Shown here one piece after another: positions 929-46,900 of a stretch of DNA of 64,000 nucleotides; position 1 is the first letter of the stretch; each line of letters opens with the position of its first letter. The translations under genes and the position numbers were made by a program. The notes under the pieces were generated by a model. That model did no database searches. It was given only the letters and a program-made list of their open reading frames with translations, and was not told where the DNA came from. The DNA is taken from NCBI GenBank assembly GCA_001464715.1, contig LNDT01000018.1, positions 19,625 to 83,624 of the forward strand, in the 5' to 3' direction. Source of the DNA: Bdellovibrionales bacterium Ga0074137. GTDB lineage: Bacteria; Bdellovibrionota; Bdellovibrionia; Bdellovibrionales; JAMPXM01.

Positions 929-2974
929 GTGAATAGCGACATCACCCCTACGCCTCTTTCATCGGTTTTTTACGAAGGTATAGATTCCGACGGTATTGTG
1001 CGCGAGGGAGCGTTCCGCGCACGTGTCAGCGTCTTGAAGCAAGAACCAAAAGAAGGCCAATCATTCATCGCGATCCTTGTCGCCTCAAATGTCACAGACC
1101 TAGAAAAGCGCGTTGCTGATTTACGCGACCGTCACCGCGATGTGCCCCTTTGGATTATTGGCGATGTTTCCGTTTCTCCCGACCACCTTCAACAGATGAT
1201 CAATACACATCGACTGAGGCGCTGGATTCCGCGTTCTTTTGAGGCTGTAGAAAAAGCAGTGCGCGAAAGTGTCAGTGAAATCGAAGCTCGTTCAACGTAT
1301 CAGAAAAGTCGCCGCGAGCTGGGCACAAGAAACCGTCAGCTGCACGATCTGCAAGAGAACCTTGAAAAAATCGTGACCGAACGAACATCTTATCTATCGG
1401 ATGCCGAGCGCGAGCTTCATAGCCGCACACAGGCCACGCGCGATCTTGTGCGCTTTATCAAAGAGCTCAGTCAAACTGAATCGATCGAAGAACTTCTCGT
1501 GCTTCTCAATCAAGAGATACGAAGCTTTCACGAAGTCCGCTCGCCCATTCTTGGTGTTGTTTCTCCTGAGTTCGGAGCACGTCTTCACTTTCAGCAGGCC
1601 CGAGCCGCCGGCGGCGGAAAGCACGCGGCGCGAGCTCTTGAAAAAGGCTGGGGATCAAAGTCAGTAAAAAAAGTGTGGACCCATCGTGTGACGATTCGGG
1701 TGGGTGATGCCGATGATCAGACCTACCTGGCTGATGAGCTCGGGCGCCCCGTCGCACGAACCATTTCGATTCCATTGGGACGCGAGTTTGGTGTTCCTGT
1801 CCGCGCCGTTCCACTTTTGTTTTTCGAACACAGTTTTGATGAGGCGAAATCCGAGCGCTTCAAACGATTTTTAATCCCGCGAATTGAACCCCTCTCAACC
1901 GCGCTGGATCGAATAATCATCAATCGTGAAATGCATGCGGCCTCGCGACTATGGGAGGCGACGTTTGACGGTATTGCGGATCCGATCGCGGTCATTACAA
2001 GTGGGTTTGAAGTTCTGCGCATGAACGAGGCTTTTTCTAGGTTTCCTGAAGCTGGAAAAAAGCTTTGTTACCAAGTGTTCGCAGATCGATCGTCACCGTG
2101 TGACGGCTGTGGCTTGAACGAAGTCGTCGCAAGCCGAGCCCCGGTTCACTGGCAAGCCCGGCGTTCGACCGATGTTTACGATGTGAATGGTTATCCGATC
2201 GAATTTGAAGACCAAGAAAGCCCGGTTCGCACCGTGATCCATCATTACTCGGACGTGACGAAATCTCTTGAGCTTAAGGGGCATGCTTTTCAAGGGGAAA
2301 AGATGGCAGCCATTGGTCTCATGGCTGGCAATATCGCCCACGAACTCAACAATCCATTGGCGGGCCTTCGTTCGCTGGCGCAGGTTCTTGCCTCCGACGA
2401 AAGTTATCCTGAGACCGTTCGCAATGATATGCGTGAAATTGAAAAAGCGGCCGAGCGGTCAAGCGCCATCATCAGAGACCTCTTAGACTTTTCGAAAGCC
2501 GACGATCGTATTCGCGAAAAAGTCTCTCTCAATGAAATCGCTGAACGGTCCTTGAATATGATCAAAACTGCTCTTCACGAGCACCGCGTAGAAACTGACT
2601 GGGCATCTCCTGAATCTGTGATGGTGGAGGTGGATCCTCATCTTCTTCAGCATGTTATTTTTAATATCGTCAACAATGCTTGTCAGGCGATGCGTGACCC
2701 AGGAGAAATTGCGATTCGAACGCGGCGCCTTCATGACCGCGTCGAAATCGAAATTGCCGACACAGGTCCTGGAATTCCCCCCGAGATTCAAAGTCGAATT
2801 TTTGAACCGTTTTTTACGACGAAAGAAGCGGGCCAGGGTACGGGACTTGGGCTCAGTATGAGTCGCTGGGTTGTCGAAAATTCCGGTGGCGTCATTGAAG
2901 TTGAAAACCGAAAAGACCAAGCCGGCACTGTCTTTCGTGTGCGACTTCCGGTCGCTCCGGAAGGATCCTCTTGA
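929..2974 (+). CDS. sensor histidine kinase (PAS-like + HisKA + HATPase_c)
   Basis: H-box IAHELNNPLAGLRSL. N-box VNNACQAM. G-boxes DTGPGIPPEI and GQGTGLGLSMS. PAS-like WEATFDGIADPIAVI. GTG start. Confidence 0.9.
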   Translation: MNSDITPTPLSSVFYEGIDSDGIVREGAFRARVSVLKQEPKEGQSFIAILVASNVTDLEKRVADLRDRHRDVPLWIIGDVSVSPDHLQQMINTHRLRRWIPRSFEAVEKAVRESVSEIEARSTYQKSRRELGTRNRQLHDLQENLEKIVTERTSYLSDAERELHSRTQATRDLVRFIKELSQTESIEELLVLLNQEIRSFHEVRSPILGVVSPEFGARLHFQQARAAGGGKHAARALEKGWGSKSVKKVWTHRVTIRVGDADDQTYLADELGRPVARTISIPLGREFGVPVRAVPLLFFEHSFDEAKSERFKRFLIPRIEPLSTALDRIIINREMHAASRLWEATFDGIADPIAVITSGFEVLRMNEAFSRFPEAGKKLCYQVFADRSSPCDGCGLNEVVASRAPVHWQARRSTDVYDVNGYPIEFEDQESPVRTVIHHYSDVTKSLELKGHAFQGEKMAAIGLMAGNIAHELNNPLAGLRSLAQVLASDESYPETVRNDMREIEKAAERSSAIIRDLLDFSKADDRIREKVSLNEIAERSLNMIKTALHEHRVETDWASPESVMVEVDPHLLQHVIFNIVNNACQAMRDPGEIAIRTRRLHDRVEIEIADTGPGIPPEIQSRIFEPFFTTKEAGQGTGLGLSMSRWVVENSGGVIEVENRKDQAGTVFRVRLPVAPEGSS

Positions 2975-3381
2975 GGACTTCGAGTTTTTCTTTTTTAGTC
3001 ATCGATGACGAGCCGCTGGTGCGACGATCTTTGGCGCGCGCGCTGCGGGCTCGCGGACATCAAACAGTCGAAGCGGTCGACGGGCACGAAGGACTCAAAG
3101 CTTGGAAGGAGACGCACTTCGACGCTGTTTTTGTCGATGTTCTGATGCCGGGTCTCAGCGGCCCGGATGTCGTTCGCCAAGCGCTGCAGGCAGGATCCGA
3201 CGCTCCCAACCAAAATCGTCCCGTGGTCGCACTCATTTCGGCCTTTTCAGGTGAAGATAGTGAAAAACTGGCTCTCGAATGTGGAGCAGATTGCTTTATC
3301 CCAAAGCCTTTTGAGGATATATTCGTCGTTGTAGACAGCGTAGCCGCAAGAGTCATGGACAAGATGCGATCGAGAGAGTGA
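2971..3381 (+). CDS. single-domain response regulator (CheY-like receiver)
   Basis: FLVIDDEPLVRRSL ... AVFVDVLMPGLSG ... KPF receiver signature. The TTG start overlaps the kinase stop (TTGA), suggesting translational coupling. Confidence 0.9.
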   Translation: MRTSSFSFLVIDDEPLVRRSLARALRARGHQTVEAVDGHEGLKAWKETHFDAVFVDVLMPGLSGPDVVRQALQAGSDAPNQNRPVVALISAFSGEDSEKLALECGADCFIPKPFEDIFVVVDSVAARVMDKMRSRE

Positions 3382-3780
3382 ATGGCCGAGAGTTCAAATG
3401 TAAGACGTGTAAAGCCGTATCCGTTCAAAGGTCAGCTCAAAGATGTCCGCGGAGCTTATCCCGGGCAGATTTTGAAATTGACCTTGCAGGGCTTGATGAT
3501 CGAAGTCGGTGGCTCTTCGGTGCAGCCCGGTGACAAAGTTGAAGTTTCTTTCACAACTCCCGTTTTGAACGGCGCTGTTATTTTGGCGGGCGTGGTTGTG
3601 AAAATTTACAACCAGCTCACTGGCGGCTCACAAGCCGTGACCGCGGGCGGTGCTGTCGGCAGTGTTGGGGGCGGATCCACCATTCACTTGATAGAAGTTC
3701 ATTACAAATCAGTTCCTCCCGATTCGATGTCGCGAATCGCGCATTTTTTGGAAAGCACCGGACAGGCAAAGCGAGGCTGA
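3382..3780 (+). CDS. small beta-rich protein, possibly PilZ-like
   Basis: 132 aa. N-terminal RRVKPYP and a central LTLQGLMIEVGG stretch loosely resemble the PilZ RxxxR / DxSxxG layout, but the motifs are degenerate. Same operon as the HK/RR. Confidence 0.45.
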   Translation: MAESSNVRRVKPYPFKGQLKDVRGAYPGQILKLTLQGLMIEVGGSSVQPGDKVEVSFTTPVLNGAVILAGVVVKIYNQLTGGSQAVTAGGAVGSVGGGSTIHLIEVHYKSVPPDSMSRIAHFLESTGQAKRG

Positions 3781-8278: not shown

Positions 8279-8330
8279 TCACCACTCGCAATTACGGTTG
8301 CACGAACCTGTTAGGGCGGAACACAAAAAA

Positions 8331-8374
8331 TCAGTTCGAGTTCGAACTCAAATCTCAGTTCGAACCCGAACTAG
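8331..8374. repeat. GTTCGAAC-containing low-complexity array (2 palindromes)
   Basis: tCAGTTCGAGTTCGAACtcaaatctcaGTTCGAACccgaactag. GTTCGAAC occurs at 8340 and 8358. The same 16-mer is found at 21401, 23202 and 24413. Confidence 0.7.
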
Positions 8375-8427: not shown

Positions 8428-8561
8428 CCGCGGGATTTTACCTTTTTCCGCGACCTCCGAATCGGGAAGGTCGCGTATGCCGCGACCCGAGGCCAGGAAG
8501 GCCGAGCCGATGCGGCAGAGGGTACGACGCCCGTGTCGCGGAAAAAGGTAAAATCCCGCGG
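8428..8561 (-). repeat. structured inverted-repeat element, copy A (possible ncRNA or MITE-like element)
   Basis: The arm at 8428-8454 (CCGCGGGATTTTACCTTTTTCCGCGAC) is the exact reverse complement of 8535-8561. The 80-nt core, once reverse-complemented, aligns along its whole length with the core of copy B at 21125-21203. Confidence 0.8.
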
Positions 8562-8587: not shown

Positions 8588-9211
8588 CTATTTTGCGCTC
8601 TCGCGGACAAAGCGAGTGAGATAATACCGAACGAGGTAATCAGTCTTGATCGCCTGTTCGCGGTAGGTCCAATTGAGATCGCCGAAGGCGCCCCAGCGAG
8701 CGATCAAGAGATCTTCTTCACCGACATGGCTTGATACGGAAACTCCGCCGGGAGCTGCCGAAGCGCCGGCAGGTTGGAATCCCGCGCCGACGTAATGGAA
8801 GCGCACAGAAACTGCGCCGGGCTCTTTCAAAGAGAAAATTAGCTTAAAGCCGTTTCGGAACAGCATGAAGTCGGCGTGAGTGTTGGCGATGCCATAAATT
8901 TTCACTCGGCCAAGAGACGAACCTTTGAGTTGATTGAAGGCCGAAGCCGCATCGACAAAAGCCGTTTTGAGTTCGTTCATGAATGCGACCGATTCACCAA
9001 CAAGAATTTGAGCAGGATCGAAGGCCGGACCGAATTCGATGACTCCGGACTCTTCCATGCGCTGCTCGGCGCGAACCAGATCTTTGATCCAACCAAGACG
9101 GTCTGAGCGTAGGCCCTGCGAATTCGTGTTTGTTCCCGGTCGACTGCCTAAGATTTCCATTCCGTCCATGGAAGAACCCCCCTGAAAAATAGAGCTAATC
9201 GCTCCTCTCAT
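8588..9211 (-). CDS. hypothetical protein
   Basis: 207-aa ORF downstream of ssb on the same strand. No recognisable motif. The opposite-strand ORF is shorter and Arg-rich. Confidence 0.6.
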   Translation of the reverse strand: MRGAISSIFQGGSSMDGMEILGSRPGTNTNSQGLRSDRLGWIKDLVRAEQRMEESGVIEFGPAFDPAQILVGESVAFMNELKTAFVDAASAFNQLKGSSLGRVKIYGIANTHADFMLFRNGFKLIFSLKEPGAVSVRFHYVGAGFQPAGASAAPGGVSVSSHVGEEDLLIARWGAFGDLNWTYREQAIKTDYLVRYYLTRFVRESAK

Positions 9212-9712: not shown

Positions 9713-9821
9713 AGAAAAGAACTCCCATCTTCCAAAGAAGAAAATCGGCGGCGGTGAATTCCGCGCCGAAGTGAGAGCTCAAGCGAAAACGGGACCGAAT
9801 TCGGTCCCGCTTCTGGAGACA

Positions 9822-20474: not shown

Positions 20475-21074
20475 ATGAACACAGATCACACCAACAACCC
20501 ATCGCCACACACTGCCAATGTGACTCGCGAGCTCGATCCTGGGCTCTTCGGAGGGTCCACGTCGACACCGGCGCAGGGACACGGTTCGACGCCCACCCAT
20601 GGACTTCATCCCGGTATCGCTCCGCCAACGACGCAGCCAGGACGTGCGATTCCTTATCCACCGATTGATATGCGAGTGCTTGAAGCGCAGGTTCTGCAAA
20701 TCAAAGCTGTGCTTTCGCAGTTCGATCGTCGTCTTGATCAGATGGCGGCCCAAATCAACGAAACGAACCGCGACAATCAAGGTCGTCTCGACCGCTACGG
20801 GCAACAGCTTTTGCGACTCGAAGATGGAATTCAGCGACTGACGTCCGACACCAGCAATCGTCTCGCCTCGCTTGCAGGCCGTGTGAACGAACGAAAAGTC
20901 AGCGACAGTAAGCTTCAAGATTTGATCGATCGCCATAATCTTTTGGTCCGCAATTTCGAAAACCGGCTCTCGTCGTTGCAAAAACTTGCGGGCGATCAAG
21001 AGCAGGCACTTTTGAGCGCGTTCGCGGCTCTTGAAGATGCTCGCGCGGATTTGGCGCGCCTAAAAAGAATGTAA
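20475..21074 (+). CDS. hypothetical coiled-coil protein with Pro/Thr/His-rich N-terminus
   Basis: 199 aa. The C-terminal 140 aa are heptad-like (LEAQVLQIKAVLSQFDRRLDQM...). The antisense ORF 20418-20999 looks like Arg-rich noise. Confidence 0.55.
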   Translation: MNTDHTNNPSPHTANVTRELDPGLFGGSTSTPAQGHGSTPTHGLHPGIAPPTTQPGRAIPYPPIDMRVLEAQVLQIKAVLSQFDRRLDQMAAQINETNRDNQGRLDRYGQQLLRLEDGIQRLTSDTSNRLASLAGRVNERKVSDSKLQDLIDRHNLLVRNFENRLSSLQKLAGDQEQALLSAFAALEDARADLARLKRM

Positions 21075-21093
21075 AAAAGCTGTTCTTCGACGT

Positions 21094-21234
21094 GGGATCG
21101 CTTCGGCCTCTCTCTTTCCGCGACACGGGCCTCCGTGCCCTCGCTGCGACGGCTCGGCCTTCCTGGCCTCGGCCCGCGTTTACGCGGACTTCCCATCGCA
21201 GAGGTCGCGGAAAGAGAGAGGCCGAAGCGATCCC
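21094..21234 (+). repeat. structured inverted-repeat element, copy B (possible ncRNA or MITE-like element)
   Basis: The arm at 21094-21124 (GGGATCGCTTCGGCCTCTCTCTTTCCGCGAC) is the exact reverse complement of 21204-21234. The 79-nt core is homologous to copy A and shares an identical 23-nt block, CGGCTCGGCCTTCCTGGCCTCGG. Confidence 0.8.
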
Positions 21235-21285
21235 TGATTCGTGCTTTGTTTGCTTTTTTATTTTTTTGGGGATGGGAGTTGGGCT

Positions 21286-21420
21286 CGGGTTGTGGTTCGA
21301 ACTGCGGGTTCTGTTCGAGTTTAGATTCGGTTTGAGTTCGCACTCGAGTCTGAGTTCGAGTTCGAACTGCGGGTTCGGAGTTTGGTTCGAGCTTGTGTTT
21401 CAGTTCGAGTTCGAACTGCT
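21286..21420. repeat. GTTCGAAC / GTTCGAG low-complexity array (3 palindromes)
   Basis: GTTCGAAC occurs at 21295, 21360 and 21409. The internal duplication GGTTCGAACTGCGGGTTC appears twice. AGTTCGAGTTCGAAC occurs at 21353 and 21402. Confidence 0.7.
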
Positions 21421-21522
21421 GGAATTCGTGGCCGCTTGCATATTGAAGCGGCCTGCCTCGTTGATTGAACGACCTTAGTTTATTTTTTCGACTTCTTGGT
21501 ATTCTTCGGAAAAATATATATT

Positions 21523-22461
21523 TTAAATTGGAAGAAGGCGATAGCGCCACTGGTTTAGCTCTGAGGCGATGTTGGCTTTTGCGTTGGCTTCATACTTTTC
21601 CTGCATTTGCGAAATCCTAAAAATTCGGCCTCTCATTAATTTTTTTAGTAGGCGCTTCCTGCCAGCGTAAAAAACGACCGACGGAATCATTTTGTACTCC
21701 TCTCTCACGTCGTTCGCGTAGGTCTCATACAAGAAACGGCAGGCACCCAGGACTGAAAGATCAATATCGAGAAACAAATTAGTATCCACATCGCCCCTAA
21801 GATCATCTCTGGCATCGCCCCTCACATCACTTTCGTGCTTGGACGCCAGGATCATCAATTCCACTGCCGGAAGCGATATATCTGACTTAAAAGTGCCAAG
21901 ATCTTGGTGTAGTCTTCTGGCGCTGTTTTCTTCATTTTTCTTCGAAGCGGGGACGTAGACCAAATCGTGGTACCAGATCGCAAGTTCAATTTTTTCCTTG
22001 TCGACATAGCCGTCGGTTGAAGTGTCCAGCTCATACAAACATTGGTTGATGTGGGTGAGCGAATGGTAGGCCCTTGCGCCATCGTCGTAGGTTTCGATAA
22101 TTGACTTCGACAGTGACTCGGACTGCTTAGTCTCCATCGAAAAGTGCCGGCGAAAAAAACCATCAAGACGTGCGAGAAGCTCGGTCTTTCGAGAAGTCGT
22201 AACGATAAGTTCGGGGTGCTTCGTCCAAATGAGAAAGAAAGCATTGTCTGTGCTGAACTGCGAAAGCGTAAGACTTTCTAGATCGATACTTGGCAGCGAC
22301 TTCACCCAGTCCATGGAAACCTGGGAAGCCGGAAGTCTCCAGCTTCTTTTGACTCCGTAAATTCGATAGAACCTATCTTCAACAAAGGGCCCGCGGTTTG
22401 TGGTTTCCACAAACACAAAGTCGATCTCGCTGGCGGTCAGTTTCTCTATTTCATTGTTCAT
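21523..22461 (-). CDS. HD-superfamily phosphohydrolase-like protein (COG4339-like C-domain) with an unknown N-terminal domain
   Basis: ARAYHSLTHINQCL ... LAIWYHDLVYVP ... NEENSA matches the H...HD pattern of the small HD family. The first 120 aa or so are unassigned. Confidence 0.6.
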   Translation of the reverse strand: MNNEIEKLTASEIDFVFVETTNRGPFVEDRFYRIYGVKRSWRLPASQVSMDWVKSLPSIDLESLTLSQFSTDNAFFLIWTKHPELIVTTSRKTELLARLDGFFRRHFSMETKQSESLSKSIIETYDDGARAYHSLTHINQCLYELDTSTDGYVDKEKIELAIWYHDLVYVPASKKNEENSARRLHQDLGTFKSDISLPAVELMILASKHESDVRGDARDDLRGDVDTNLFLDIDLSVLGACRFLYETYANDVREEYKMIPSVVFYAGRKRLLKKLMRGRIFRISQMQEKYEANAKANIASELNQWRYRLLPI

Positions 22462-23119: not shown

Positions 23120-23180
23120 TGTTGCGGCTATTTGAAAATCGCGGTGAAAATTTGTATCGATTGGTTGATTGCCTGGTTGA

Positions 23181-23228
23181 TTCAAGTTCGAACCTGAAAT
23201 TCAGTTCGAGTTCGAACCTGAACTTGAA
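23181..23228. repeat. GTTCGAAC array (2 palindromes)
   Basis: ttcaaGTTCGAACctgaaattCAGTTCGAGTTCGAACctgaacttgaac. Located in the 470-nt gap after tetR. Confidence 0.65.
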
Positions 23229-23591: not shown

Positions 23592-24719
23592 ATGAATCTC
23601 AAAATCCTATCGGACGAAACTTTGACTGAAAAACTTCGCGATCTTTCAAAGCGTGATCTGGCGCTCACGGCAGAGATCGTCTCGCACATTCATGAGTTTA
23701 TGGTGCGACGATTGTACCTCGATCACGGGTGCACCAGTATTTTCGGATATCTCACAGATCACCTTGGCTATCCGCGTGCCACCGCCCAAAACCGAATCGA
23801 TGCGGCTCGGTTGTTGGACGCTGTTCCGGAAATTAAAGAAGAGCTCGCCAATGGAAAGATTAGTCTTGGGCAAATCACTTTGATCTCGATGGGTGTTCGG
23901 CAGGCCGAGAAAGAAAATCCTGGGATGAAAGTGTCCGTCGATCAAAAGCGACATTTGGTCGAGAAGATCGCAAATCGCGGGAACGCTGAGACGGGCAGTG
24001 GATGCCTTTATGGCGAGCATGCCGAAAGTGGTGAAAAAACTGCGAAAAGCGGTAACGGTGGGTCGGTTAGGTCCGAACATGCATCTGCTCAAATCATAGC
24101 GCAGGAACTCGATATCAAAATCATTCCCGTTGAAAGAGTTCGTGTGCATCAAGACGGTTCGGTCACTATCGAAGTCCACCTTTCCAAAGAAGAATTCGAA
24201 AACCTAAAACGGGTCCGCGATCTAAACACGCACAAAAACCACAACGCAAAACTCGGCGAAACTGTCGCTGAGGCGGCGAAGTTCTTTTTAGAAAAAAAGG
24301 ATCCACGAAAATTAAAAACCAAAATTGACCTGCAGCAGGCGAAAACCGATTCGATTTCAGAAACTGGTTCGGATTCGAACTTGGAGGTAGGCTCGGGACC
24401 GAACCAAAATTTCAGTTCGAGTTCGAACTCGAAAGATGATTTGCCAAAAACCAGTACGGTCGCCTTGAGGCCGAGCGCCCAACTTCCAAAACGCATCCAG
24501 CGTAACTATATTAGTGTGCACGTTGTTCGCGCCCTTCATCAGCGAGACAAATCATGTCGGTGGCGGGACTCAACGGGCCACTTTTGCGGATCGACGTACC
24601 AGCTGCAAATCGATCACATCAGAGGACTTGCCGATGGTGGCGCCGACGCGATCGAAAATCTTGAGCTAAAATGCTCAATACACAACCGACGGAAGTTCGA
24701 ACTCGAACAACGTCAGTGA
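23592..24719 (+). CDS. HNH endonuclease (DUF222-like N-domain + C-terminal HNH)
   Basis: C-terminal LQIDHIRGLADGGADAIENLELKCSIHNRRK is an H-N-H motif. The N-terminus (LLDAVPEIKEELANGKISLGQ) resembles the DUF222/13E12-type family. GGAGGAG RBS. Confidence 0.85.
   Translation: MNLKILSDETLTEKLRDLSKRDLALTAEIVSHIHEFMVRRLYLDHGCTSIFGYLTDHLGYPRATAQNRIDAARLLDAVPEIKEELANGKISLGQITLISMGVRQAEKENPGMKVSVDQKRHLVEKIANRGNAETGSGCLYGEHAESGEKTAKSGNGGSVRSEHASAQIIAQELDIKIIPVERVRVHQDGSVTIEVHLSKEEFENLKRVRDLNTHKNHNAKLGETVAEAAKFFLEKKDPRKLKTKIDLQQAKTDSISETGSDSNLEVGSGPNQNFSSSSNSKDDLPKTSTVALRPSAQLPKRIQRNYISVHVVRALHQRDKSCRWRDSTGHFCGSTYQLQIDHIRGLADGGADAIENLELKCSIHNRRKFELEQRQ
24366..24432. repeat. GTTCGA-type repeat embedded in frame in the HNH gene linker
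   Basis: ggttcggATTCGAACttggaggtaggctcgggaccgaaccaaaatttCAGTTCGAGTTCGAACtcg, translated as GSDSNLEVGSGPNQNFSSSSNS. Confidence 0.6.
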
Positions 24720-42694: not shown

Positions 42695-43884
42695 TCAATT
42701 CAAAGAACTTCTACTCAGAGATGAAGGCGTTTCATCGGTTTTCGGAGCTGACGGAAGCTTCCAATTACAAACGGGCTCCCGACGACTGGTGGATTCTTAT
42801 TACCGACGTCAAAGGTTCTACGCGGGCGATCGAAAACAATCGCTACAAGGACGTAAATCTTCTTGGCGCTTCATCGATTATTGCCATTCTCAATATTCTT
42901 AAAGGCCAACAAGTTCCCTTCGTCTTCGGTGGGGATGGCGCGACTTTGCTTGTTCACGAATCTGATGTCGAGCGAGTGAAGCCGGCACTTTTGGGAACTC
43001 AGCGCCTTGCAAAAGACGTCTTCGGATTCGAACTTCGTATCGGATTGGTTCCTGTTGCGATGCTTACTCAAAGTGGTGCTGTTGTTGAGGTTGGGAAATT
43101 TGCTATCTCCGAGAAGTCGACAATTGCAACTCTTCGCGGTGGCGGTCTGAGCTTAGCTGAGAAAATGGTGAAGGACCCACGGCCTGAAAATTCGAAGTAT
43201 CGCCTCGACTTCGATGGATCAATCGCCGCCGACGTAACAAGTTTCGAAGGTCTGTCGTGCCGTTGGAATCCCATCAAAGCAAAACCAGGCTGTGAATTCA
43301 TCAGTCTCTTGGTTGTAGCCATCGATCTCAGTACATCTGAAACTGTTTATCGACGAATCATAAAAAAGATTGAAGGCATTCTCGATGAAAAAGGGAGTTG
43401 CCCGATTTCTCCAGAAAAGCTGGACCGCGGCTTAAACATCGCAAGCCTCATTAAAGAAATGCGAATTCATACCATCGGACGGTCGTTCCTCGCGAAGGCG
43501 GGACGTCTCTTTAAGATCTTCTTTGAAGTCGGCGTTATGAGAATCTTCATGGCGACCGGAGCGAAAACCAAAGACTTCTCGGCTGAAAAGTACATCCAAG
43601 AAATGTCCGACAACACCGACTTTCAAAAATTCGACGACATGATTCGAATGGTCCGCGACTGCACGACTCAACAGCGCGAACAAATTCTGAGTCTTTTGAG
43701 AGCCGAAAGAGACGCAGGCCACATCGCCTACGGGCTCCACACCTCAAACGAAGCGCTCCTCACGTGCCTGGTCTTCCAACTAGACAACCACATCCACTTC
43801 GTCGACGGAAGCAACGGTGGCTACGCCCTCGCCGCTAAACAGCTCAAAGAGCAATTGAAGATGCCTCTCACCGCAGAATACTGA
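42691..43884 (+). CDS. DUF3095-like protein (nucleotide-cyclase-like fold suspected)
   Basis: N-terminal pattern PDDWWILITDVKGSTRAIENNRYKDVNLLGASSIIAILN...PFVFGGDGATLLV, as I recall it for DUF3095. ATGA overlap with the upstream gene. Confidence 0.65.
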   Translation: MINSKNFYSEMKAFHRFSELTEASNYKRAPDDWWILITDVKGSTRAIENNRYKDVNLLGASSIIAILNILKGQQVPFVFGGDGATLLVHESDVERVKPALLGTQRLAKDVFGFELRIGLVPVAMLTQSGAVVEVGKFAISEKSTIATLRGGGLSLAEKMVKDPRPENSKYRLDFDGSIAADVTSFEGLSCRWNPIKAKPGCEFISLLVVAIDLSTSETVYRRIIKKIEGILDEKGSCPISPEKLDRGLNIASLIKEMRIHTIGRSFLAKAGRLFKIFFEVGVMRIFMATGAKTKDFSAEKYIQEMSDNTDFQKFDDMIRMVRDCTTQQREQILSLLRAERDAGHIAYGLHTSNEALLTCLVFQLDNHIHFVDGSNGGYALAAKQLKEQLKMPLTAEY

Positions 43885-43933
43885 TCGCAAACTGACGCCG
43901 CGATCTCAGTTTCAGTCGTCAGTTTGTGATCAG
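43881..43933. terminator. 17-bp inverted repeat spanning the stop codons of two convergent genes (possible bidirectional terminator)
   Basis: CTGATCGCAAACTGACG (43881-43897) pairs with CGTCAGTTTGTGATCAG (43917-43933) with one G-U pair. The loop is 19 nt. There is no U-tract. Confidence 0.35.
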
Positions 43934-46900
43934 TATTTCAGTGGTGCGAAGATCACTCTGTCTTCGCACATGAAGACGATCTGGGACGCGGTTGTTTGCG
44001 TTGCTTCGACTGTGTCGCCCATGGTTTGGCAGCCTTTGGGGGCGGCCATCCGTAATCGTGCGGGTCTTGCGAACGAGATCAGACGGCCGCCTTCATAGCG
44101 GGGAGTGAGGATCTCGAAGGAATCGGATCCTGTTAGTCCGTCGATGACGTAGATCATCGGGAGTCGGTCTGCGTTTGCGTTTCGAACATCGCCCAGCACC
44201 GGGAAGAAAAGCTGTGCAAAGAAGAATTCTGGCATAAAGCTAAAACGCTTCAGTGACGTCGACACGCGGTCGCCCGTATTCAGATCCTCGTACTGCATTT
44301 CATAAATCGTCTGTGCAATGAGCGACTTCTCTTTTGTCCCCGTGAAGGTTCCGATGATCGCCCCGACGCCGTCTACTTTCGCCATCGGCTCGACAACTTT
44401 ATCGAAGACAACTCCCTTGTCGTATTTGAAGGCCGTCACTCGGTTGGCCGAGCGATAGCTTTTGCTGAAGAAGCCTGATCCCACGATGTCGCCGGCGTTA
44501 GATAGGCCAGGCGAGCTTGCGTCAAACAGAGGCGCCATTTTCGTAACTCGAACTTGGCGATAACCACCCAAATCCATCGGTCTCATGTCCGACAACTTCA
44601 TATCTTCAAGCCGGGAAAGCTCGTAGACGGCATCAGTGCCTTTGCCGGAAATCCACATCACTTGTCGCTCACCCGTGCGCATTTGTTCACGCGACGCTGT
44701 CAGAAATGCGATTGGCGTGCGCTCATCGTCGCGAACCAATCTCACACCCTTCGGCCCCCACACATAGATTCTAAAATCAGGAAGATCCGCAGGGGTCGGA
44801 TTCCACGGATCATACGGAGCTTTTTCGAGCTCTGGAGTCGTGCCTCGGTTGATCCACGCTGGAACTTTCCTTTGACCCAAAGAGATCCACTGGAAATTCT
44901 CATCCATGACCGAGAATTCATTCTTGAAAATGATTTCTGAGGCCGTGGTCCCATCGAATTCGAGCGGTTTTGGATTCAATGATGAATCAAAAAATCGGAA
45001 TAAAAAGTCCGGCGTCATTTTACCAGACGGGGGCTTTTGTTGCCATACAAGAACGTAGTCCGGCGATCCGTCACCATCGAGGTCGACACGGTGACGGGCT
45101 TGAAGAATACCGTCCGTCGCCGGAAGAATTGCGGTGTGACGGACACCAAATTGAGTTTTCTCCTCGGTCGCAAGAATCAACTGTAGTCCTACGTCGGTCG
45201 TCTTTATGCCGATGAAGTCTCTCTCGGTCCGACCATCGCGGCTGACGACGCTTCCGATGTCTGAATCACCGAAGGCGGAGATCAGTTTCGAGTCGCCGCG
45301 CAAAGGACGGGTGAGAAGCTCGGGGTCCGACGCCGTCGGTGTCGATCTTGTTTCAATCGCCACGAGTCGCTTTTCCGTTTTCCGCGCACCCGTTGCCGCA
45401 TCGGTCGATGTGATAATGAGTTCTGCTTGAATCTCACTTTCAAATCGATCGGACAGAACTTCGAGATATACAGCGAATTCGCGTTTTTCAAGAGACTTCC
45501 ACTGAGTGGCTGTCAGTGTGCTCGGGTAAGCTCGCACGTCTCGACCGTCAACGCCGTCGAATTGAATTTTTATTGAGACTTCAGAAGCTTCGCGCCAAAG
45601 GTTTTCGAATTTGATTTTCAGCGGAATTCGATTTGACTGCCGATCCCACGAAGCCGCGATAGCACGTTTCTCGCTTGGAAAGATGAGCGGTTGTGGTTTA
45701 ACGGCAAACGCTTTTCCAAGATCAGCATTTCCTGATTGAACCTTTGCCTGGCGATTTGGAGGCGCCCTTGGGTTCGGCGCGGCGGGGCGTGCGCCAAGAA
45801 GAAGTCGTGCGCGAGCTTCCGTCGGTGAATAGCCAGCGTTCAGCAATCTTGCCAAGAGCCCAGCGACCAGCGGACTCGATGCGCTCGTTCCGTTTTTCAA
45901 CTCGTAACCGACTCGCTCGTTAAAAACCCTTGATCGTAAGTTAAGAGGAAATGCACTTAACAGACTCAATCCCGGCGCTGCAATGTCAACGCCCGGACCG
46001 TGGTTTGAGAAGTGAGATATCGCGCCATCGGGATCATGCGATCCGACGCAGATGACACCTTGAAAAATGCAAGGACGGATCAGCAGATCGGTCCCGTCAT
46101 TGCCGGAAGCTGCAACGACAAGTATTCCTCGTGACGTGGCAAGATCGATCATCTGCTGCATCAAATTTGAATCGATAGCTGCAGGCCAGCCAAGGGACAT
46201 ATTTATGACATTGGCACCCGAGCGAATCGCGTAAAGCATTCCACGAGCGGCAAGATCTGCAAGACCTCTTTCAGCGTTCGGATCTTTCTCGATGGGTGTG
46301 GGTAAATTTGTAAGATCGATATCTCGCGGGCCACCAAGACTTGGGCTGTTTTGAGGCCGAATCGGTTCGGTGGTTCCTCCGCGCATGACCTTCACGGGAA
46401 TAATACGAGTGTTCTGTAGGATGCCCTGAATGCCGTCGCCGTCGTCGGAACGTGCTGCGATCAGTGCTGCGACATGAGTTCCGTGACCTGTGATGTCTGA
46501 GACATCGCCGTCGCCCCAAACTTGGCTGGTCGCGGATGTTTTTGCCGTTAGATTCCAGCCGACACAATCCAGCGGATAACCATTACCGTCGAAGTCTTTT
46601 CCAGCATAAGTACTGTTGCATTTTTCTTTGGCTACGGAAACTTCGCCAGCCTTCAGTTTCTCAGCCTCTTTTGTGCACTTCGAAAATTGCACGACGGCTC
46701 GGCACTCAGCACTGCTTTCGTTCAATCTGTCGCGGAGCTCCGGGTGAGTGATATCAAGGCCGCTATCCATAATTGCGATTTTTATTCGACGGTCTGGATT
46801 CGCGGATTCCGCCGGAGCTTGATCCAAACCCAGATCCTCACCAGGTTTTCCTTTTACAAAAAGACTGGTCAAGTCATCCAGTGCAACGGCCACTTCTTGT

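Follow-up and report, generated by a model that had tools for sequence, protein, structure and literature searches.

The window, a 64,000-nucleotide stretch of a 175 kb JGI metagenome contig from Bdellovibrionales bacterium Ga0074137, contains two copies of an element of about 140 bases, termed B (21094-21234 on the forward strand) and A (8428-8561 on the reverse strand), which lie 12.5 kb apart in opposite orientation and form the two longest inverted repeats within these 64 kb. The surrounding genes are largely housekeeping genes, encoding SSB, a pseudouridine synthase, TsaD, SmpB, MotAB, and peptidoglycan enzymes, and are accompanied by genes for a coiled-coil protein, a TetR protein, and hypothetical proteins. 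By the named homologs of its flanking proteins, the source belongs to the Bdellovibrionota. Each copy is composed of a core enclosed by a perfectly complementary stem, 31 bp long in B and 27 bp in A, and the arms of both stems were found exactly where the original prediction, which was made from the letters of the DNA alone, had placed them. The arms are spaced 79 nt apart in B and 80 nt apart in A, and the stem of A can be extended to 33 nt at 94% complementarity (8422-8454/8535-8567). The 5′ arm of B includes a 12-nt pyrimidine run, CTCTCTCTTTCC, along with the inner conserved segment TTTCCGCGAC. The cores of A and B (79-80 nt) are homologous and can be aligned end to end, and the 23-nt block that they had been predicted to share, CGGCTCGGCCTTCCTGGCCTCGG, is exact in both and occurs nowhere else in the window, even with up to three mismatches allowed (0 occurrences expected). 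Folding z-scores are -9.5 for B and -8.8 for A, with no shuffled sequence folding equally well, and copy B recurs without any difference in a second, independent assembly (ENA). The features of the two copies and their immediate surroundings are collected in Table 1.

Table 1. Features of copies B and A and of the sequences next to them; positions are those of the window.
Feature	Position	Strand	Basis or remark
B, 5′ arm of closing stem, 31 nt	21094-21124	+	100% complementary to 21204-21234; 31 Watson-Crick pairs, 0 G·U
B, core, 79 nt	21125-21203	+	MFE and consensus folds
B, P2 hairpin	21127-21140	+	MFE and consensus folds
B, P3 helix	21144-21152 / 21193-21201	+	Folds; covariation
B, P4 hairpin, GGCC-UUCCU-GGCC	21156-21168	+	Folds; invariant
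B, P5 hairpin	21174-21187	+	Folds; covariation
B, invariant 23-mer CGGCTCGGCCTTCCTGGCCTCGG (P4 hairpin with flanks)	21150-21172	+	Identical in five of five full copies
B, 3′ arm of closing stem	21204-21234	+	Complementarity to 5′ arm
T-rich tract TGATTCGTGCTTTGTTTGCTTTTTTATTTTTTT directly 3′ of B	21235-21266	+	About 90% conserved in ortholog
A, 5′ arm (element sense), 27 nt perfect; to 8567 with 2 mismatches	8535-8561	-	Complementarity
A, core, 80 nt; 23-mer at 8487-8509	8455-8534	-	Covariance-model score 113 bits
A, 3′ arm of closing stem	8428-8454	-	Complementarity
Gene upstream of B, 199-aa coiled-coil protein	20475-21074	+	Stop codon 19 nt before stem
Gene upstream of A, 207-aa protein conserved in Bdellovibrionota	8588-9211	-	Stop codon 26 nt before stem
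Terminator-like hairpin, 17 pairs with ATTTTTTGTG tail	8322-8373	-	55 nt downstream of A; outside the family

Beyond A and B, three further full copies and one partial copy are present in other Bdellovibrionota assemblies. An exact 20-mer scan of the 185,579 species genomes in the GTDB species set returned 54 hits, only one of which is a true relative (L024, in a Bdellovibrionales MAG, with a perfect 34 bp stem that again differs in sequence), and a 23-mer scan of metagenome contigs returned a single match (L058), which has a 31 bp stem. Homologs of the flanking proteins led to an ortholog of B in L059, termed B′, and to a truncated ortholog of A in L065, termed A′. A covariance model built on three copies and run with filters off located no further copy when applied to the window, to another 15 kb of the source contig, and to about 250 kb of relatives. 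The ~79 kb of source contig covered hold two copies. Likewise, an nhmmer search over 458 kb of family and relative loci yielded no further copy, divergent ones included, and collections of plasmid, phage, and viral sequences contained nothing similar to the element. No family of Rfam 15 reached its gathering score anywhere in the window, none matched the element at E ≤ 10 or the L024 and L058 copies at E ≤ 1, and ARAGORN identified no tRNA or tmRNA gene in the window. The earlier statement that the element belongs to no known family is therefore borne out against Rfam, and, of the findings that had been named in advance as speaking against the original reading, an Rfam hit, target-site duplications, and high copy number were looked for and are absent. 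The family is real, rare, and low in copy number.

Several short-read contigs from the Logan collection break off inside the element, namely L060, L061, and L062 at their 3′ ends and L065 at 9727-9794, and one of them ends in Illumina adapter sequence. Perfect 31-nt inverted repeats seem to break short-read assembly, and the element is probably under-sampled in MAGs because such contigs stop within it. The variant P4 with which L065 ends may reflect faulty assembly.

In the consensus fold of the family, the closing stem leads into a small hairpin (P2) and a helix of 9 bp (P3), the latter enclosing an invariant hairpin (P4) and a sequence-variable one (P5), with a predicted hairpin energy of -86 to -120 kcal/mol. 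Covariation was assessed over the five full copies, which represent four independent loci (A, B, L024, and L058). Standard pairs occupy 95.9% of the consensus pair cells and 17 of the 39 consensus pairs have changed on both sides, values for pairing and two-sided change that none of 500 shuffles attained, while controls with slid partners paired in 37-52% of cells. Several compensated changes are located in P3 and likewise in P5, one position of P3 is occupied by four different pair types, and P4 is invariant; the few G·U cells of the core sit at helix ends. The compensatory changes between A and B listed in the original prediction are present, though each 9 bp helix that it cited also contains a mismatch it did not mention (C·A in B and C·U in A). 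Covariation across the family is good evidence for the fold, at a level below R-scape grade with four independent loci.

The closing stems measure 27-34 bp across the family, and the five of them together have 153 Watson-Crick pairs and a single mismatch, with G·U pairs missing altogether. The middle portions of the arms had been taken as unrelated between A and B, a view that does not hold once more family members are added, as the arms of A′, L058, B, and B′ can be aligned over their whole length and differ by paired changes, with A as an outlier, around the consensus G[G/A]GATCGCG...pyrimidine run...TTTCCGCGAC. Judged by this full-length alignment with its paired differences, the arms are homologous but drifting, not unrelated. 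Every stem contains a homopurine/homopyrimidine run of 9-14 nt (e.g., 21109-21120 in the window and 6499-6512 in L024), which A, B, and L058 have in the inner part of the 5′ arm and L024 has, as purines, in the outer part.

The composition of these stems bears on the level at which the fold is selected. Terminators of Bacillus cereus, where selection acts on the RNA, have G·U at about 4% of their stem pairs, and AU↔GC changes make up 79% of their pair switches; in a terminator stem that serves both strands only Watson-Crick pairs are tolerated, such shared terminators being more conserved (PMC5381666). Only about half of the pair switches in the element are of the AU↔GC type. Fold strength is also approximately equal on the two strands in all five copies, with a difference of 0.4-7 kcal/mol that varies in direction, and because the strands fold equally well the sense RNA is not marked as the active strand. 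Stems restricted to Watson-Crick pairs, together with equal strands, suggest one of three possibilities: constraint acting on both strands, as in a bidirectional role; a fold at the DNA level; or copying from arm to arm.

Purifying selection acts on the element, and a decaying repeat is ruled out, since B and B′ are about 86% identical overall (87% in each arm and 85% in the core), whereas four-fold degenerate sites in six flanking genes, which serve as the neutral comparison, are 36-69% identical (about 50%). Four of the 31 stem pairs have changed between B and B′, all of them on both sides, and three of these are fully compensated while the fourth is a C·T mismatch. The compensated changes include C-G to G-C and T-A to G-C switches, for which no G·U intermediate is possible. 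The T-rich tract after the B stem and the 19-nt spacer before it are conserved, and the rest of the spacer has large indels. With the helix-level covariation in the added homologs and the conservation of B/B′ above neutral sites, the original inference of selection on a folded single strand, RNA or ssDNA, stands.

Two ORFs cross copy B, one of 184 aa at 20996-21550 on the reverse strand, which is annotated as a gene in two public assemblies, and one of 128 aa at 21092-21478 on the forward strand. A coding sequence across B was rejected on the basis of ortholog indels that break the frame (1 nt in the core, and spacer gaps not divisible by three), and by the same indels the annotated 184-aa ORF is spurious.

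At all four independent loci, the core is oriented as the nearest gene is, with a convergent gene on the other side, and the stem starts 19, 26, 60, or 65 nt past the upstream stop codon. The upstream proteins are unrelated to each other across loci, and for A and B the convergent ORFs are mutually unrelated as well, which rules out a duplicated unit of gene and element. Downstream of A, the terminator-like hairpin lies on the same strand, and would thereby place A inside the 3′ UTR of the 207-aa gene. The L024 stem ends in CCCUUUUU, with the convergent gene's own terminator coming before the element, and at L058 the element occupies the whole gap between two stop codons. A U tract adjoins the stem in L024 only, being 14 nt off in B and missing in A and L058; A-rich and T-rich flanks are found in L024 and B. 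The possibility that the arms act as guides for another locus was discarded, as their matches across some 100 kb of source genome do not exceed 11-12 nt.

A scan for promoter-like sites upstream of the element found none, a result that weighs on one rival explanation, in which the element would be a stand-alone small RNA gene whose stem is cut by RNase III, much as in rRNA precursors, and whose ~100-nt core acts in trans. A perfect duplex of at least 27 bp is of sufficient length for an RNase III substrate; the invariant single-stranded C/U-rich segments of the core (the UUCCU loop and CUUCCC), an inner stem that is conserved beside an outer one that varies, and strong selection on sequence would fit a trans-acting RNA too. 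Besides the missing promoter-like site, however, the element begins 19-26 nt past a stop codon in A and B, its copies are too sporadic among relatives for a housekeeping role, and its closing stems are devoid of G·U pairs. A small RNA with a processing stem is therefore regarded as an unlikely account of the family.

Other hairpins are present in intergenic regions of the window. The terminator-like hairpin that follows copy A is one of a set of GTTCGAAC-palindrome repeats (e.g., CAGTTCGAGTTCGAACTG), which form hairpins in three intergenic regions (8332-8373, 21290-21420, and 23180-23225) and have further sites at 24421, 24695, 51221, and 62914, with 11 exact GTTCGAAC sites compared to 2.4 expected. 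Both the source lineage and L059 carry them. Since none lies close to the element in L024 or L058 and others occur elsewhere in the window, they were set aside as a part of the element, and they look like a separate lineage-specific repeat family. Between convergent genes at 43877-43937 there is also a hairpin with 21-nt arms of 95% complementarity and a 19-nt spacer (AATACTGATCGCAAACTGACG...), which has no relation to the family and probably serves as a terminator.

The distribution of the element is patchy. Only the source organism and one close relative (L059, L065) carry the element at the A and B sites, and both sites are empty in the next relatives (L066, L074, L079, and L085): the A site is empty in relatives with a 207-aa ortholog that is 85% and 79% identical, and the B site in relatives with a 199-aa ortholog that is 84% and 81% identical. 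In other Bdellovibrionota, copies are found at unrelated loci (L024 and L058). A and B each lie at the edge of a block that is missing from those relatives, which at A is about 0.9 kb long with a 161-aa ORF and at B is about 4.8 kb long (21075 to ~25900), with a 312-aa ORF, a TetR gene, and a DUF222-HNH gene. The flanks contain no target-site duplication in B (GACGT|TGATT), A (TGTGT|CCTCA), L024 (CCGGC|TCAGA), or L058 (GATAC|TAGAT). Among the neighboring ORFs scanned there is no transposase, integrase, or reverse transcriptase, nor is there a recombinase gene near the element.

These observations are central to the main rival explanation, according to which the element is a non-autonomous, hairpin-type mobile DNA of the MITE/REPIN kind, folded as ssDNA, served by a transposase or recombinase encoded elsewhere, and gained recently in the lineage. 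Mobility would account for sites filled only in the source and its close relative, for copies at unrelated loci elsewhere, and for the location of A and B at the edges of variable blocks, and it is also compatible with stems of Watson-Crick pairs only and no strand asymmetry, as a DNA-level constraint would produce, and with long terminal inverted repeats in a convergent intergenic position, as in REP and MITE elements. Target-site duplications are nevertheless missing, copies are very few (two per ~79 kb, and one in 185,579 species genomes), and the scanned neighbors encode none of the mobility enzymes. Moreover, a selfish copy would be expected to decay neutrally, which is at odds with the identity of B and B′ relative to four-fold sites, and the arms are not conserved as would be expected of a transposase binding site. 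A mobile element is considered doubtful on this evidence.

Several features of the variable regions were recorded separately. The DUF222 and HNH endonuclease gene (375 aa, 23592-24719, forward strand) lies within the block missing from L079 and L085, a related DUF222/HNH gene is found at a different place in L066 (165-1145), and the gene may be a mobile HNH gene. A link between this gene, 2.4 kb from B, and the element found no support, as the ORFs scanned beside the element in L024 and L058 include no such gene. In L066, the empty A site carries a small G+C-rich terminator-like hairpin; insertion of the element into a pre-existing terminator hairpin was rejected because this hairpin is unrelated in sequence to the arms. 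The empty B site in L079 (10690-10790) contains two similar small hairpins (GCCGCCGAAAG...CTTTCGGC), which represent a different local repeat. In L059, two extra ORFs (98 aa and 234-250 aa, 2082-3400) are located between the convergent gene and B′, so that the region adjacent to the element varies even among close relatives.

The location of the element at block boundaries could also indicate a DNA recombination or inversion site, whose arms would be recombinase sites kept identical by mutual recombination and marking gene-block junctions. Such a site would explain why the arms are perfectly complementary despite transversion switches and why their inner and outer segments are conserved, but the covariation in P3 and P5 needs a folded single strand and not duplex DNA. 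The core also has a single orientation at all loci, with no sign of inversion, 80 bp would be very short for recombinase-mediated inversion, and no recombinase gene is nearby, and a recombination site of this type is thought highly improbable. A fold at the DNA level, or on both strands, could instead belong to a novel type of hairpin site for recombination or integration that follows the logic of attC sites, with perfect stems and a conserved, branched apex, and that marks the entry of foreign blocks beside conserved genes, its arms being kept complementary by arm-to-arm copying; this too would be improbable.

attC sites fold as single-strand hairpins of 57-141 nt, lie at the 3′ ends of cassettes, conserve their structure better than their sequence, and may branch at the apex. 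Their ends read RYYYAAC/GTTRRRY, they include extrahelical bases along with a central spacer that is unpaired, and they form arrays near intI. The ends of the element, conversely, are GGGATCGC...GCGATCCC in B and CCGCGGGAT...ATCCCGCGG in A, without RYYYAAC...GTTRRRY core sites, and its stems are composed of 27-34 consecutive Watson-Crick pairs with no bulges. In place of a one-orientation cassette array by intI, there are two isolated copies in opposite orientation among housekeeping genes. Unlike MITEs, the element has no flanking duplications, its arms differ between copies, and the invariant core has one match in the GTDB species set and one in metagenomes; unlike retron msr-msd regions, it has no RT domain encoded in neighboring genes. 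The defining features of Rfam families, MITEs, attC sites, and retrons that were tested for are absent from the element.

Other intergenic hairpins share more with it. Correia/NEMIS elements of Neisseria, ERIC, and RUP are ~100-150 nt long, form long hairpins in mRNAs, are targets of RNase III, and modulate mRNA stability. Correia elements resemble the element described here in their length and long hairpin fold, but they have conserved terminal repeats of 26 bp, duplicate a TA target, and number in the hundreds, none of which is true of the element. In BIMEs, a central motif is flanked by two inverted palindromic units, and REP, BIME, and REPIN sequences are, like the element, intergenic hairpins that often lie between convergent genes. 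REP arms are conserved, however, and a genome holds tens to hundreds of them, whereas the arms of the element drift, its center is conserved, and it numbers about two per 79 kb; the ORFs scanned in the 79 kb sample include no RAYT-type gene. Bidirectional intrinsic terminators likewise consist of a G+C-rich hairpin between convergent genes with flanking A/T tracts, though their loops are 3-8 nt and their stems 5-12 bp, compared to a multi-helix domain of 79-80 nt in place of the loop and stems of 27-34 bp here. The stem of the element is G+C-rich and very stable, and a U tract directly after it occurs inconsistently among the loci. In function, the closest analogy is with the REP hairpins of E. 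coli, which are combined 3′-UTR terminators and mRNA stabilizers and vary in position among strains (bioRxiv 10.64898/2026.03.23.713779).

The reading given the most weight, at a probability of roughly 0.45, is that the element is a structured 3′-UTR RNA module that ends, stabilizes, or insulates the transcript of its upstream gene. This reading is favored because of the covarying fold, the purifying selection between B and B′, and the uniform orientation 19-65 nt past stop codons, as well as the U-tract hairpin after A, the CCCUUUUU end of the L024 stem, and the hairpin at the empty A site. It is weakened by the inconsistent U tract, the stems of Watson-Crick pairs only, the share of AU↔GC switches (about half), and the equal fold of the two strands, and by the patchy distribution and the edges of variable blocks, which also fit a mobile element. 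Both the small RNA with a processing stem and the DNA recombination site are less likely.

As a 3′-UTR module, the element would be transcribed and would act as RNA, with transcription of the upstream gene continuing through it. The transcript would then fold into a stable hairpin, in which the perfect 27-34 bp stem is topped by P2 and by P3 enclosing P4 and P5. The stem may serve to terminate or insulate transcription between the convergent genes and to shield the 3′ end against 3′-to-5′ exonucleases, and the invariant P4 region, represented by the 23-mer, could be where a protein or another RNA docks. RNase III may also process the long perfect duplex and thereby free the core.

If true, these findings would add a covariation-backed structured element to the predatory Bdellovibrionota, a phylum with very few characterized regulatory RNAs. 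In practical terms, it is an element that would be under-sampled in metagenome-derived genomes, with short-read assemblies breaking inside it. Its design would be unusual, in that the center of the hairpin is conserved rather than the arms and the 27-34 bp stems remain strictly Watson-Crick through transversion-type double changes. Such strict stems bear on how long palindromes are kept up, whether through selection on both strands or through arm-to-arm copying.
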